DNA of 10,646 bases from a virus (lineage: Duplodnaviria; Heunggongvirae; Uroviricota; Caudoviricetes): IMG/VR virus record IMGVR_UViG_3300029459_000089, one strand, 5' to 3'. A program made the position numbers and the translations under genes. Below are positions 1-9,000 of this stretch, piece by piece; position 1 is the first letter of the stretch; each line of letters begins with the position of its first letter. The notes under the pieces are model-generated. The model did no database searches. It was not told the DNA's origin and saw only the letters and a list, made by a program, of their open reading frames with translations.

Positions 1-3000
1 CGTACACGGTCAGCGCCTCGGTAAGCGACAAAGCGGGTAACCCGGCGACCGCCACTCACGGCCTGGCGGTGGATCTCACCGTGCCAGTTTTAACCATTAA
101 CACCGTCTCCGGCGATGACATCATTAATGCCGCCGAACACGGGCAGGCGCTGGTGATCTCCGGTTCCAGCACTGGCGGGGAAGCGGGCGATGTCATCACC
201 ATCACGTTAAACAGTAAAACCTACACTACCACGCTGGACGCCTCCGGCAACTGGAGCGTCGGCGTTCCGGCAGCAGACGTCACTGCGCTGGGCAGCGGCC
301 CGCAAACCATCACTGCGGCAATTACCGATGCGGCAGGCAACAGCGATGATGCCAGCCGCACGCTCACCGTGAATCTCACCTCGCCAACCATTGGTATCAA
401 CACTATCGCCAGCGATGACGTGATTAACGCCACAGAAAAAGGCGCGGATCTGCAAATTACTGGCACCAGTAATCAGCCCGCAGGCACCACCATTACAGTG
501 ACGCTGAACGGACAAAATTACACCGCTACCACCGATAGCAGTGGCAACTGGAGCGCCACGGTGCCAGCCTCGGCAGCTAGCGCGTTGGGTGAAGCCAACT
601 ACACGGTAACGGCGAGCGTTACCGACACGGCAGGCAACAGTAATTCCGCCAGCCATAATGTGCTGGTCAACAGCGCCTTACCTGGCGTTACCATTAACGC
701 AGTGGCAACCGATGACATTATTAATGCCGCCGAAGCGGGCAGTGCGCAAACCATCAGCGGGCAGGTGACGGGCGCGGCGGCGGGCGATACGGTCACCGTC
801 ACGCTGGGCGGCAACACCTACATCGCTACGGTGCAGGCTAATTTAAGCTGGAGTGTCAGCGTTCCGGCGGCGGATATTCAGGCGCTGGGTAACGGCGACC
901 TGACAGTTAACGCCTCGGTCACCAATGGCGTTGGCAACACGGGCAGCGGCTCGCGGGATATCACTATCGATGCCAATCTGCCTGGTTTGCGGGTCGATAC
1001 CGTAGCGGGCGATGATGTTATTAACAGCATTGAGCACAATCAGGCGCTGGTGATAACAGGTAGCAGCACCGGGCTGACGGCAGGAACGGCATTAACGGTC
1101 GTGATTAACAACGTCACTTACGCTGCCACGGTGTTAGCTGACGGTACATGGAACCTCGGCGTTCCGGCGGCAGACGTCAGCAACTGGCCTGCGGGTACGG
1201 CGGATATCACGGTAAGCGGTACTAACAGCGCTGGAACAACCTCCACCATTACCCATCCGGTTACCGTCGATCTGGCGGCGGTCGCCATAACCATTAACAC
1301 TCTCTCCGGCGATGATGTGATCAATGCCGTCGAAAAAGGCGAAACGCTGGTGGTGAGCGGCAGTACCAGCGGTGTAGAAGCCGGGCAGAGGTGACCGTCA
1401 CCTTTGGCGGCAAAAATTACACCACCACCGTGGAAGCCAACGGTAGCTGGACGGTGAATGTGCCGCCTGCCGATCTCGCTGCGTTGCCGGACGGCGCGGG
1501 CAACGTGCAGGCGAGTGTCAGCAACATTAACGGCAACAGCGCCCAGGCCGATCGCGCGTACAGCGTCGATGCCACCGCGCCGCTTGTGACCATCAACACC
1601 ATCGCCAGCGACGATATTCTCAACGTGAGTGAAGCGGGCGCGGGGATAACCATCAGCGGCACCACCACGGCGCAGGCCGGGCAGACGCTGACTGTCACGC
1701 TCAATAACAACACGTACCAGACCACCGTTCAGGCGGATGGCACCTGGAGCGTGAACGTTCCGGCGACAGATTTAAGCGGATTAACCGCCAGCAGTTATAC
1801 CGTGACCGCCACGGTGAGCGACAAAGCGGGTAATCCGGCAAGCGTCGATCATGCACTGGCGGTGGACGTTACCGCGCCGGATCTCACCATTAACACCGTC
1901 GCGGGAGATGACATTATCAACGCCATCGAACACGGGCAGGCGCTGGTGGTGAGCGGAACCAGTACGGGCGCGGCGGCAGGCGATGTGGTGACCGTCACGC
2001 TGAACGGTAAAAACTACACCACAACGCTGGACGCCTCCGGTAACTGGAGTGTGGGTATTCCGGCGGCGGATGTCACGGCACTGGCAATCGGTAGCCAGAC
2101 CATCACCGCCAGCCTGAGCGATCGCGCGGGCAACAGCGACAGCACGACTCACGATGTGACCGTTGATCTCAGTGGCCCGACGCTGACCATTAACACTGTC
2201 TCCGGCGATGACATTATTAATAATGCGGAGAAAACCCAGGATCTGATCATCAGCGGCGGATCCAGCGGTCTGGCGGCAGGCACCACGGTCACTGTGATGT
2301 TGAACGGCCTGGCGTACAGCGCCACCACCGACGGCTCCGGCAACTGGAGCGTTACCGTGCCGGCTTCGGCGGTCGGCGCACTGGGCGAGGCGGTTTATTC
2401 GATTAGCGCCAGCGCCACCGACAGCGCGGGTAACAGCGGTAGTACTACCCATACGGTGAATGTCGAATCGCTCCTGCCAGGGGTAATCATTAATACTGTG
2501 GCGGGTGATGACATTATCAACGCCGCTGAAATCGCCGTTAACCAGACCCTCAGCGGTCAGGTGACGGGGACGGCAGCAGCAGGAGATTCGGTCACTGTCA
2601 CGCTCGGCGGTAATCAATACATTGCCACCGTGCAGCCAGATTTAAGCTGGAGCGTCAGCGTGCCTGCGGTAGATTTGCAGGCGCTGGGTAACGGTGAACT
2701 GACCATCAGCGCCTCGGTGACCAATTCCGCAAATAATACCGGCACCGCGACGCACGATATCGTGATAGATGCTAACTTGCCAGGTCTGCGGGTTGATACC
2801 GTGGCAGGCGATGATGTGATTAACAGCATTGAGCACACTCAGGCACTGGTGGTCACCGGTAGCAGTAGCGGACTGGCGGCGGGCGCGGCGTTGACGGTGG
2901 TTATCAATAGCGTCACCTACGGCGCAACGGTACTCGCCGATGGCACCTGGAGCGTCGGCGTTCCGGCGANNNNNNNNNNNNNNNNNNNNNNNNNNNNNNN

Positions 3001-6000
3001 NNNNNNNNNNNNNNNNCAATATTGCCGTCTCTGGCACCAATACCGCAGGAACCACAACCAGCATTACTCATCCGGTCACCGTCGATCTTGCGGCCGTGGC
3101 GATTACCATCAACACCCTTTCCACTGACGATGTGATAAACGCCGCCGAGAAAGGCACTGATTTGCAGCTTTCCGGCACCACCTCCGGCGTGGAAGCGGGG
3201 CAGACTATTACCGTTATTTTCGGTGGCAAAAGCTACACCACCACGGTTGCCGCGGATAATACCTGGGGGCTGACGATCCCAGCAGCCGATCTCGCAACCT
3301 TGCCGGATGGCGCAGCAAACATCCAGGCCAGCGTCAGCAACGTCGCGGGTAACAACGCCCAGGCAACGCATGTTTATAGCGTCGATGCCACCGCGCCCTC
3401 CGTTACTATCAACACCATCGCCAGCGACGATATTCTTAATGCCGCCGAAGCGGGATCGGCGCTGACCATCAGCGGCACCAGCACCGCAGAAGCCGGGCAG
3501 ACAGTGACCGTGACGCTAAACGGCATCAATTACAGCGGCAACGTGCAGGCAGACGGGAGCTGGAGCGTCAGCGTACCAACTGGCGATTTAGCCGACCTTA
3601 CCGCCAGCTCCTATACGGTGAGCGCGGCGGTCAGCGACAAAGCGGGCAACCCGACCTCGGTAACGCATAATCTGGCGGTGGACCTTGCCGCTCCAGTCGT
3701 CACCATTAACACGGTAGCGGGCGATGACGTGATTAACGCCACGGAACATGCCCAGGCGCAGATTATCAGCGGCTCGGCAACGGGCGCGACGACGGGTAAC
3801 ACGGTTTCCGTGACGATTGGCACGACCACCTACACCACCGTGCTGGACGCCAACGGCAACTGGAGCATCGGTGTGCCTGCCAGCGTGATTTCCGCACTGG
3901 AGCAGGGTGATGTAACCATTACCGCCACGGTTACCGACTCCGCAGGCAACAGCGGCACGGCCTCGCACACTGTCAGCGTGGCGCTCGGTGCACCGATACT
4001 CGCCATTAACACCATCGCCGTCGATGACATCATCAACGCCACGGAGAAAGGCGCGGATCTGTCGATTTCCGGCACCAGCAACCAGCCTGCGGGCACGCAG
4101 GTAACTGTTACGCTCAACGGGCAAAATTACACCACCACTGCCGATGCTTCCGGGAACTGGAGCGTGACTGTTCCGGCGTCTGCGGTTGGTACGCTCGGTG
4201 AAGCGACTTATACGGTGACTGCCGCCGCAACCGATGTTGATGGCAATAGCGGTTCCGCCAGCCATAACGTGCAGGTTAATACCGCGCTACCGGGCGTCAC
4301 CATTAACGTTGTGGCAACGGACGATATTATTAACGCCGCCGAAGCGGGGGCAACTCAAACTATCAGCGGGCAGGTCACGAGGGCCGTGGCGGGCGATACG
4401 GTGACCGTGACGCTCGGTGGGGCGACTTACACCGCTACGGTACAGGCAGACTTAAGCTGGAGTGTCGATGTTCCGGCTTCGGCGTTACAGGCGTTGGGCA
4501 ACGGAGAGCTGACCATTTCGGCTTCGGTAACGAACAGCGTTGGCAATACCGGTAACGGCACGCGCGAAATCACCATAGACGCGAATCTCCCCGGTCTGCG
4601 GGTCGATACCGTAGCGGGCGATGACGTGGTCAACATTATCGAGCATGGGCAGGCGCTGGTGATTACCGGCAGCAGCTCTGGGCTGGCGGTGGGTAGCAAT
4701 GTCACGCTGACCATTAACGGGCAAACCTATGTTGCGGCAGTNNNNNNNNNNGGCGGATGGCACCTGGAGCGTCGGCGTTCCGGCGGTGGATGTCAGCGCC
4801 TGGCCTGCGGGGGCGGTGACGATTACGGCGAGCGGCAGCACTACCGCCGGAAACTCGGTCAGCGTTACGCATCCAGTGACTGTCGATCTCTCGGCGGTGG
4901 CGGTCAGGATCAACGCCATTACCGCCGATGATGTGATTAACGCCGCTGAAAAAGGCGCGGCATTAACGCTCTCCGGCAGCACCTCTGGCGTGGAGGCCGG
5001 GCAAACGGTCACCGTGACCTTTGGCGGTAAAACCTATACTGCAAGAGTCGCGGCGAATGGTTCCTGGAGCACCACGGTTCCGGCGGCGGATATGGCAGCC
5101 CTGCGTGATGGTGATGCCAGCGCGCAGGCCAGCGTCAGCAACGTTAACGGCAACAGTGCCACCACTACCCACGCTTACAGCGTCGATGCCACCGCGCCAA
5201 CGGTGACCATTAACACCATTGCGGGCGACGATATTCTTAACGCCGCCGAAGCGGGTGCGGCGCTGACCATCACCGGCAGCAGCACGGCGGAAGCCGGGCA
5301 GACGGTGACCGTCACGCTCAATGGCGCAAACTATACTGGCACGGTACAAACGGACGGCAGCTGGAGTATCAGCGTGCCGTCAGCCGACTTAAGCGCCCTG
5401 ACCGCCAGCAACTACACCGTTAGCGCGGCGGTGAGCGACAAAGCCGGAAACCCGGCCTCCGCTAACCATAACCTGACGGTGGATACATCCGTTCCGGTCG
5501 TCACCATCAACACGGTGGCGGGCGATGATGTGATCAACGCGACGGAACACGCCCAGGCGCAGATCATCAGCGGCTCCGCCACGGGTGCGGCAACCGGTAG
5601 CACCGTGACGGTGACTATCGGCACAAACACCTTTACCACCGTGCTGGATGCCAGCGGCAACTGGAGCGTCGGCGTTCCGGCAAGCGTCGTCTCGGCGCTG
5701 GCGAACGGCACGGTGACCATTAACGCCAGCGTCACCGACGCCGCCGGAAACAGCGGCAACGCCACGCATCAGGTGACGGTCAATACGGGTCTGCCGTCAA
5801 TTACCTTTAACGCCATCAGCGGCGATAACGTCCTGAATGCCGATGAAAAAGGCCAGCCGTTGACCATCAGCGGTAGCAGTACGGGGCTGGCGACGGGCGC
5901 ACAGGTTACCGTCACGCTCAACGGTCATAACTACAGCGCCACCACCGACGCGGCGGGCAACTGGACCTTAACCGTTCCGGTCAGCGATCTGGCGGCTCTA

Positions 6001-9000
6001 GGTCAGGCCAACTATACCGTCAGCGCCAGTGCCACCAGTGCGGCAGGCAACACCGCCAGCAGCCAGGCGAATTTACTGGTCGACAGCGGCCTGCCGGGCG
6101 TCACCATCAATACTGTGGCGGACGACGATATTATCAACGCCGCCGAAGCCGGGGCCGATCAAACCATCAGCGGAGTGGTCACTCGTGCCGCCGCAGGCGA
6201 TACGGTTACCGTGACGCTGGGTGGCAATACTTATACTGCACAAGTTCAGGCCGATTTAAGCTGGAGCGTCAGCGTTCCGGCAGCCGATCTCCAGGCGTTG
6301 GGCAATGGCGATTTGACCATTAACGCCTCGGTTACCAACGCGAATGGCAATACGGGTAGCGGCACGCGAGATATCACCATTGACGCCAACCTGCCAGGTC
6401 TGCGCGTGGATACCGTGGCGGGTGATGATATCGTCAACAGCATCGAACACGGGCAGGCGCTGGTGATCACCGGCGGCAGTAGCGGCCTGAATGCAGGCGC
6501 AGCGCTGACGGTCACCATCAACGGTGTGGCCTATGCCGCCACGGTACAGGCTGACGGTAGCTGGAGCGTTGGCATTCCGGCGGCGAACGTTAGCGCATGG
6601 CCAGCGGGGCCGTTGGCCGTTGACGTGGCAGGACAGAGCAGCGCCGGAAATCCGGTCAGCGTCAGCCATCCGTTCACCGTCGATTTAACGGCGGTGGCGA
6701 TCAGCATCAACACCGTTGCCAGCGACGACGTGATTAACGCCGCCGAGAAAGGCACCAATCTGACCCTTTCCGGCAGTACCAGCGGGATTGAAAGCGGGCA
6801 AACCGTCACCGTCACTTTTGGCGGCAAAACCTACACCGCAAGCATCGCCGCCAACGGAAGCTGGAGCGTGAATGTTCCGGCGGCAGATCTGGCATCTCTG
6901 CCAGACGGCGCGGCGAATGTACAGGCCAGCGTTAGCAGCGCGAGCGGCAACAGCGCCTCGGCGACCCATGCGTATAGCGTTGACGCCAGCGCACCGACGC
7001 TCACCATAAACACCATCGCCAGCGACGATATCCTTAACGCCACAGAGGCCGGAAGCCCGCTCACCATCAGCGGTACCAGCACCGCCGAAACCGGGCAGAC
7101 GGTCACCGTCACTCTTAACGGTGCAACCTACAGCGGCACTGTACAGGCGGATGGTAGCTGGAGCGTCAGCGTTCCCACTTCAGCCTTAGGCGCGCTAACC
7201 GCAAGCAATTACACCGTCAGCGCCACGGTCAACGACAAAGCAGGCAACCCCGGCAGCGCCAGCCATAATCTGGCGATAGACACCACCGCGCCGGTTCTTA
7301 CCATTAACACCGTCGCAGGCGATGACATCATCAACGACGCCGAACACGCCCAGGCGCTGGTGATTTCCGGCACCAGTACCGGCGGGGAAGCGGGCGATGT
7401 GGTGAGCGTTGTGCTCAACGGCAAAACGTATACCACGACGCTGGATGCCTCCGGCAACTGGAGCGTTGGCGTACCGGCGGCGGATGTTACGGCACTGGGT
7501 AGCGGCGCACAGACCATCACCGCCAGCGTCAGCGATCGGGCGGGTAACAGCGACGACGCCAGCCGCACCGTGACCGTCAGCCTCAGCGCGCCAGTGATTA
7601 GCATCAACACCATCGCGGGCGATGATGTGATCAACGCGATGGAAAAAGGATCAAATCTGGCGCTTTCCGGCACCAGCGATCAGCCTGCGGGTACGGCGAT
7701 CACCGTGACGCTGAATGGACAAAACTACAGCGCCACCACCGATGCCTCCGGCAACTGGAGCGTTACCGTGCCTGCCTCGGCAGTCAGTGCGCTGGGCGAA
7801 GCGACATATAGCGTCACGGCGAGCGTCACCAACGCCCAGGGCAACAGCAGTACTGCCAGCCATAATGTGCAGGTCATTACCGCGCTGCCGGGCGTCACCA
7901 TTAATCCGGTGGCGACGGACGATATTATCAATGCTTCAGAGGCGGGCAGCGCGCAAACTATCAGCGGCCAGGTAACCGGGGCGGTGGCTGGCAGCACCGT
8001 CACCGTTGAACTGGGTGGTAAAACTTACACCGCCACCGTCCAGGCTGATTTAAGCTGGAATGTAAGCGTACCAGCCGCTGACTGGCAGGCGTTAGGTAAC
8101 GGTGAATTAACGGTTAATGCCTCGGTGACCAACGCCGTTGGCAACACCGGCAGCGGCATGCGTGATATCACCATCGATGCCAGTCTGCCCGGTCTGCGGG
8201 TGGATACCGTCGCGGGCGATGATGTGGTCAATATCATCGAACACGCTCAGGCGCAGGTGATTACCGGGAGCAGCTCTGGCTTTACGGCAGGCACGGCGCT
8301 GACCGTGGTGATAAATAACCAAACTTATGCCGCCACGGTGTTGGCGAACGGCAGCTGGAGCGTCGGCGTTCCGGCGGCGGATGTCAGTAACTGGCCTGCG
8401 GGAACGCTGAATATTACCGTTAGCGGCGCGAACAGTGCCGGAACGCAAACCAGCATTACCCATCCGCTGACCGTTGATCTCACTACCGTTGCCATCAGCA
8501 TTAACGCTATTACCCCTGATGATGTGATTAACGCCGCCGAAAAAGGCGCGGCGCTAACGCTTTCCGGCAGCACGTCCGGCGTCGAAGCGGGGCAAACCGT
8601 TACTATTACCTTTGGCGGCAAAACCTACACCACCACGGTGGCGGCAAACGGTAGCTGGAGCACCACCGTTCCGACTGCGGATTTGGCGGCTTTGCGTGAC
8701 GGCGATGCCAGCGCCCAGGTGCGGGTGACTAACGTCAACGGCAACAGCGCCACGACAACGCATGAATACAGCGTCGATAGCGCCGCGCCAACGGTGACCA
8801 TCAACACCATTGCCAGCGATAACATCATCAACGCCAGCGAAGCGGCGGCGGGCGTCACGGTGTCCGGCACCAGCACCGCGGAAACCGGGCAGACGCTGAC
8901 CGTCACGCTTAATGGCACTAACTACCAGACCACGGTGCAGGCAGACGGCAGCTGGAGCTTAACGCTGCCTGCCAGTGACCTAACCGCACTTGCCAATAAC

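Follow-up and report, generated by a model that had tools for sequence, protein, structure and literature searches.

The giant adhesin gene siiEA appears to be interrupted by a one-base deletion in a strain of Escherichia coli from the human gut, and a real, recent and strain-private frameshift is the reading that we favor, with a probability of about 0.6. The window, that is, the whole 10,646-nt stretch of DNA analyzed here, lies with all of its bases inside this one gene on the + strand. Positions 1383–1396 read GGGCAGAGGTGACC, and the closest orthologue from a complete genome, that of E. coli 24A16CRGN010 (L001), reads GCCGGGCAGACGGTGACCGTC; the C of an ACG codon is gone. The intact orthologue stretch at the site is GGGCAGACGGTGACC, and the window sequence (GGGCAGA^GGTGACC) is one C short. 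Pairwise alignment with L001 places the deletion junction at 1389..1390 (+ strand; ACG GTG to A-G GTG), and Thr-Val-Thr is thereby changed to Arg-stop. The triplets CAG AGG TGA at 1386..1394 (+ strand), exactly where a preliminary description of this DNA had put a Gln-Arg-stop, specify Gln2404, Arg2405 (Thr in the intact allele), and a premature stop, with codon numbers counted from the true start codon at position 115 of a contig of the same strain (L009). The loss of the C is the sole gap in a 2,968-nt alignment of the window with L001 and the sole indel in 9,920 collinear nucleotides between L009 and L001. The lost C stands alone in the context GACGG and belongs to neither a homopolymer nor a short tandem repeat, and Tandem Repeats Finder reported no tandem repeats in the window.

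The window encodes a series of Ig-like modules of ~100 amino acids each, organized as a super-repeat about 1.8 kb in length. The deletion was originally recognized by comparison with paralogous modules, and this comparison holds: four FGGK-type modules are one base longer at the corresponding site, where they read GGGCARACN (A or G at R) in an intact frame, and the orthologue alignment agrees with them. Module comparison locates these paralogous intact sites on the + strand at 3198..3212 (GGGCAGACTATTACC), 4999..5013 (GGGCAAACGGTCACC), 6796..6810 (GGGCAAACCGTCACC), and 8590..8604 (GGGCAAACCGTTACT), with a spacing of 1794–1801 nt. The + strand of the window is open in frame 3 (3–1391), frame 2 (1316–3124), frame 3 again (2895–4928), and frame 1 (4711–10646). 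The first of these stretches holds the last 463 codons of the upstream frame (3..1391, + strand, window frame 3), which form the C-terminal end of a truncated product of 2,405 amino acids that was called in full on the metagenome contig ERZ773532 NODE_2173. Past the site, window frame 2 is open and module-like, as the preliminary description had stated for the shifted frame. This downstream frame starts from a GTG overlapping the new stop codon and carries on the module series (1391..2969, + strand), and the ORF call P0136 on the metagenome contig starts at exactly this GTG.

The downstream ORF changes frame twice more within the window, although neither change is a mutation because both fall exactly at runs of N of the wrong length. 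Scaffold gap 1 (2970..3016) is filled with 47 N, and positions 2968–3016 (GA plus the 47 N) correspond to 33 bases in the same-strain contig and in the orthologue, which leaves a true gap content of 31 bases. Scaffold gap 2 (4742..4751) is filled with 10 N and has a true content of three bases (GCT). The segment at 3017..4741 (+ strand) thus belongs to the same downstream ORF and stands in frame 3 merely by the mis-sized gap 1, as L009 has an uninterrupted frame 3 between 7254 and 11765, a span that includes both gap positions. Likewise, the segment from 4752..10646 (+ strand), which is collinear with L001 22103–29726, continues this ORF to the window end and stands in frame 1 merely by the mis-sized gap 2. 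Once the lengths of the N runs are corrected, no true frame break other than the one-base deletion remains in the 10.6-kb window. A heavily decayed pseudogene, as three frame changes might suggest, was accordingly rejected, and ORF calls across the N runs of the window are not to be trusted, given that the mis-sized gaps produce two false frame changes. Exact-repeat comparison further identified two copies of a 29-nt repeat (GATGGCACCTGGAGCGTCGGCGTTCCGGC), of which the first (2939..2967, + strand) ends at gap 1 and the second (4756..4784, + strand) begins just past gap 2. Gaps at both copies would point to scaffolding by a short-read assembler run with small k. The two bases before gap 1 (window 2968–2969) read GA, whereas L009 and L001 read AG, and this GA is probably a contig-end base error of the window assembly.

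The gene is siiEA, a BapA-related giant adhesin gene of E. coli whose product is exported by type I secretion. The window is 95–97% identical to and collinear with the annotated siiEA of complete E. coli genomes; nucleotide identity with the siiEA of NZ_CM148325.1 is 95.4–96.9% over the whole window, and the best match among complete genomes is 97.6% identical. Translations of the window match the NCBIfam model Ca_tandemer (NF033510) at 916.7 and 775.5 bits and Pfam Big_13 at E = 1e-53. The N-terminus lies outside the window itself and was examined on the same-strain contig, where L009:115–1614 scores 511.6 bits on NF047714 (“BapA-related adhesin SiiEA”) against a cut-off of 425. In the orthologue L001, the N-terminus matches the SiiEA-specific model and BapA_N. 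Matches at its C-terminus comprise FG-GAP repeats, RTX repeats, HemolysinCabind, and TIGR03661, a type I secretion target domain (34.8 bits, cut-off 17.6); the window stops ~1.6 kb before the gene end. In complete E. coli genomes, siiEA is 19–22 kb long and located between ybaT and cueR. The flanking genes lie beyond the ends of both the window and L009, and the neighborhood was therefore read from five orthologous loci (L001, L002, L005, L007, and L008), in which a gene for a TolC-family outer membrane protein lies upstream and genes for a type I secretion ABC permease/ATPase and an HlyD adaptor lie downstream. A protein homology search, in which the listed proteins were of at most 1,724 amino acids, returned the intact module copies P0102 and P0111, and SiiEA proteins of 6,925 amino acids are present in the protein collection. 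A plasmid search with the window matched only two E. coli chromosomes that are filed as plasmids.

Like BapA of Salmonella, the siiEA product has a BapA_N prefix domain (PF22783, NF033677) at its N-terminus, long arrays of Ca2+-stabilized Ig-like repeats, and a C-terminal type I secretion signal, with TolC, ABC, and HlyD-family genes adjacent in the siiEA orthologue. However, SiiEA is a separate family at the equivalog level (named “BapA-related” by NCBI), is much longer, and is encoded at another locus (ybaT–cueR). The product also resembles Salmonella SiiE, encoded on SPI-4, in being a giant non-fimbrial Ig-domain adhesin that is exported by type I secretion, and SiiE is the source of the gene name siiEA (PMC6272769; PMC3256949). 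On the other hand, the N-terminal domain and the repeat type of the siiEA product are those of BapA, and no match specific to the SiiE family was obtained with the siiEA sequences. In the stretch that separates the start codon from the collinear block, the gut strain has ~894 nt (approximately three Ig-like modules) fewer than the orthologue (L009 115–1833 compared with L001 12384–14996), which reflects either variation in repeat number or an assembly collapse.

The deletion allele is confined to one strain among the sequences searched. Comparison with the orthologous gene in sister strains, which the preliminary description had proposed as a check, finds the C intact in L001 and the deletion in none of the 381 complete E. 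coli genomes that have the module, as judged from a 101-nt query across the site that matched none of them above 99% identity. Among the 40 matches listed out of these 381, every one spans 102 bases, i.e., the intact length. Among 63 fetched loci, the deletion allele occurs only in L004/L009. A scan of 241 million metagenome records for a pattern of either allele gave two matches, L003 and L004. The former (ERZ1026901) shares 96.9% identity with the window and retains the C, and the latter, which is the same contig as L009 (ENA USZI01002173.1, i.e., ERZ773532 NODE_2173), is an 11,831-nt contig with a coverage of 4.1 from a human gut metagenome and has the deletion allele. This contig is 100% identical to the window over 1–2967 and at every called base of 3017–5839, contains no N, reads through both gap positions, and holds the true siiEA start codon (L009 position 115). 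Because the called bases of 1–5839 match in this way and the contig boundaries differ, L004 represents the same strain as the window, assembled differently. Both ORF products are called on it, the 2,405-residue product ending in GVEAGQR and a second one from the GTG overlapping the stop, and among about 15 billion proteins their exact sequences occur on that one contig only. The final 77 nt of the contig (L009 11755–11831) leave siiEA abruptly, have no match in 5,426 complete E. coli genomes, and give the downstream ORF P0136 a false stop; this tail is probably a chimeric contig end of a low-coverage metaSPAdes assembly.

The preliminary description had left the choice between an error and a real frameshift, and both still stand, although the presence of the deletion in the second assembly, with its different contig boundaries (ERZ773532 NODE_2173), tilts the balance toward a real mutation or at least toward support at the read level. 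The same base call was made by different assemblers or under different parameters, because the window assembly broke at both 29-nt repeats and the metaSPAdes contig did not. The lost C lies outside any homopolymer, and therefore the usual mode of indel error in 454, Ion Torrent, Nanopore, and PacBio data does not apply. Indel errors are rare in Illumina data, and sequencing chemistries do not tend to lose bases in a context such as that of the deletion. Confusion between paralogues is unlikely as well, since every junction-spanning k-mer is unique at k ≥ 12 and no exact repeat longer than 22 nt lies within 60 nt of the site. A de Bruijn mis-join between paralogous modules was rejected on the basis of these unique k-mers. 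Further points in favor of a real mutation are that no second indel occurs in the 9,920 collinear nucleotides and that siiEA is demonstrably inactivated in other natural E. coli lineages. Template switching at a quasi-palindrome was also considered as an origin of the deletion and rejected; the intact allele has a 6-bp inverted repeat (GACGGT-G-ACCGTC), and the deletion breaks this palindrome rather than perfecting it.

Against a real mutation count the absence of the deletion from all of the complete genomes and the restriction of both products to one contig. A possible, though less probable, explanation is that siiEA is intact in this strain and that the C was lost at a low-coverage spot of the metagenome, during gap closing or through a few erroneous reads, and was then passed into two assemblies of the same reads. 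The window assembly and ERZ773532 may indeed derive from the same reads, in which case their agreement would be no independent confirmation. Coverage is low for the metagenome contig (4.1), although this SPAdes k-mer coverage corresponds to a read depth of roughly 9x or more. The assemblies are also flawed elsewhere: the window is a scaffold whose gaps are mis-sized and whose two bases before gap 1 diverge from the other assembly, and that assembly has a tail that is probably chimeric. Moreover, the gene is otherwise fully intact and evolves under purifying selection, with dN/dS relative to the orthologue being 0.08 downstream of the deletion and 0.14 upstream. This absence of decay downstream would fit a very recent mutation and an error alike; a real mutation would have to be young, given the lack of any other lesion in the downstream frame and the purifying selection on it. 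Speaking against an artefact are the agreement of two differently built assemblies and the position of the site in unique, non-homopolymeric sequence at a distance of 1.58 kb from the closest contig end. In addition, a de Bruijn mis-join between paralogues would be expected to join the modules in register and not to drop one base. On balance, the frameshift is better explained as a real mutation of the gut strain.

If the frameshift is real, loss of the C from the Thr2405 codon (ACG) would place AGG (Arg) at codon 2405, followed directly by TGA. The upstream product of 2,405 amino acids comprises the N-terminal domain of SiiEA/BapA and about 40% of the Ig-like repeats. Judging from collinearity with the orthologue, it would lack the FG-GAP and RTX repeats and the secretion target domain of the C-terminus in addition to the remaining ~3,600 amino acids of repeats. 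Substrates of type I secretion are recognized via a C-terminal signal, and with this signal lost, the N-terminal fragment would not be exportable and a full-length adhesin of ~6,000 amino acids would not be made. The overlap of the start codon of the downstream ORF with the stop (GTGA, window 1391–1394) is created by the deletion, and the only Shine-Dalgarno-like sequence, GAGG, abuts the GTG with no spacer. The downstream ORF would retain the secretion signal, but as it has no properly spaced ribosome-binding site, it is best regarded as a predicted ORF only. In functional terms, such an allele would be either a null or a split gene.

A programmed recoding event, either a –1 ribosomal frameshift or transcriptional slippage that restores the full-length adhesin, might be suspected from the more than 3,000 codons over which the downstream frame stays intact and from the rare codon AGG immediately before the stop. 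Nevertheless, the sequence at the site (GAA GCC GGG CAG AGG TGA) contains no slippery heptamer of the form X XXY YYZ and no run of A or T, a +1 shift of a ribosome stalled at AGG would lead into the wrong frame, and the predicted fold of the downstream RNA is unremarkable (z = –1.63), with 15 of 200 shuffled sequences folding as well. All 381 orthologues and all paralogues are single-frame at the site, and the two-frame arrangement is thus not conserved, which makes recoding very improbable. Reversible on/off switching of a contingency locus by slipped-strand mispairing is just as remote. Giant adhesins and other surface proteins are, in general, frequent targets of phase variation, but no homopolymer or short tandem repeat lies at or beside the site, Tandem Repeats Finder being negative over the window, and no length variation occurs at the site in the 381 genomes. 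The earlier judgments that the site is neither a homopolymer nor a slippery sequence and that slipped-strand phase variation is unsupported are therefore borne out, and a plain frameshift mutation remains the preferred account of the deletion.

Naturally inactivated siiEA alleles are found in at least two other lineages of E. coli. The O157:H7 strains 86-24 (two assemblies) and 644-PT8 (L005, L006, and L010) have in common an in-frame stop of the TAG type at codon 1462, which yields the z0609/z0615 pair of strain EDL933. The locus is O-island 28 of enterohemorrhagic E. coli O157:H7, where rtxA28 and rtxB28 correspond to z0609 and z0615 (PMC12758282). The O157:H7 allele is like that of the gut strain in that the same gene is divided into two ORFs, whereas it is divided there by a nonsense codon at codon 1462 and here by a one-base deletion at codon 2405. 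Three further isolates, from a dog in South Korea and from humans in Japan and Mali (L002, L007, and L008), whose genomes differ by only 1–3 bases over 21.7 kb, have an identical siiEA pseudogene that carries a CAG to TAG change at codon 2813 (gene positions 8437–8439) as well as a frameshift (~12698–12921). This clonal lineage is among the complete genomes closest to the window, with 97.4% identity. These lineage-fixed pseudogenes resemble the window allele in having a single lesion or a few lesions in an otherwise intact giant ORF. However, they are observed in several independent complete genomes, while the deletion in the window is observed in the assemblies of one strain only.

The two O157:H7 halves were taken in a 2025 paper as separate RTX adhesins, rtxA28 and rtxB28, both of which were needed for adherence and for colonization of mice, with only partial complementation (PMC12758282). 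That paper never applies the words pseudogene, stop codon, or frameshift to rtxA28/rtxB28, nor does it note their origin from one gene. By analogy, there is a small chance that split siiEA alleles may keep some function. In the gut strain, re-initiation at the GTG might give a C-terminal protein of ~3,600 amino acids that would be exported without the BapA-type prefix, an arrangement that would parallel the z0609/z0615 split, although a working two-part adhesin of this kind is improbable. If it were nonetheless the case, split siiEA alleles would be recurrent functional variants, giving a released rather than a cell-anchored adhesin, and not pseudogenes.

The deletion in the window was thus accurately observed, and the event is ordinary, as it affects a known and frequently pseudogenized giant adhesin gene and is not novel in kind. 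If the frameshift is real, a gut strain of E. coli has lost or split a giant colonization adhesin, which would add one more inactivation to those of siiEA. If it is an artefact, it illustrates that low-coverage metagenome assemblies can split giant repeat genes into false ORFs. The significance beyond annotation is small in both cases.

Sequences related to the siiEA N-terminus also occur under unrelated taxonomic labels. A sequence 95% identical to the query is located on an 8.4-kb scaffold (L011, JAGZNZ010000034.1) of a metagenome-assembled genome labeled Collinsella sp., and a 60% identical relative is found in a genome labeled Vagococcus sp. (L018, NZ_JBQPOM010000067.1). Both look like contamination with Enterobacteriaceae sequence.
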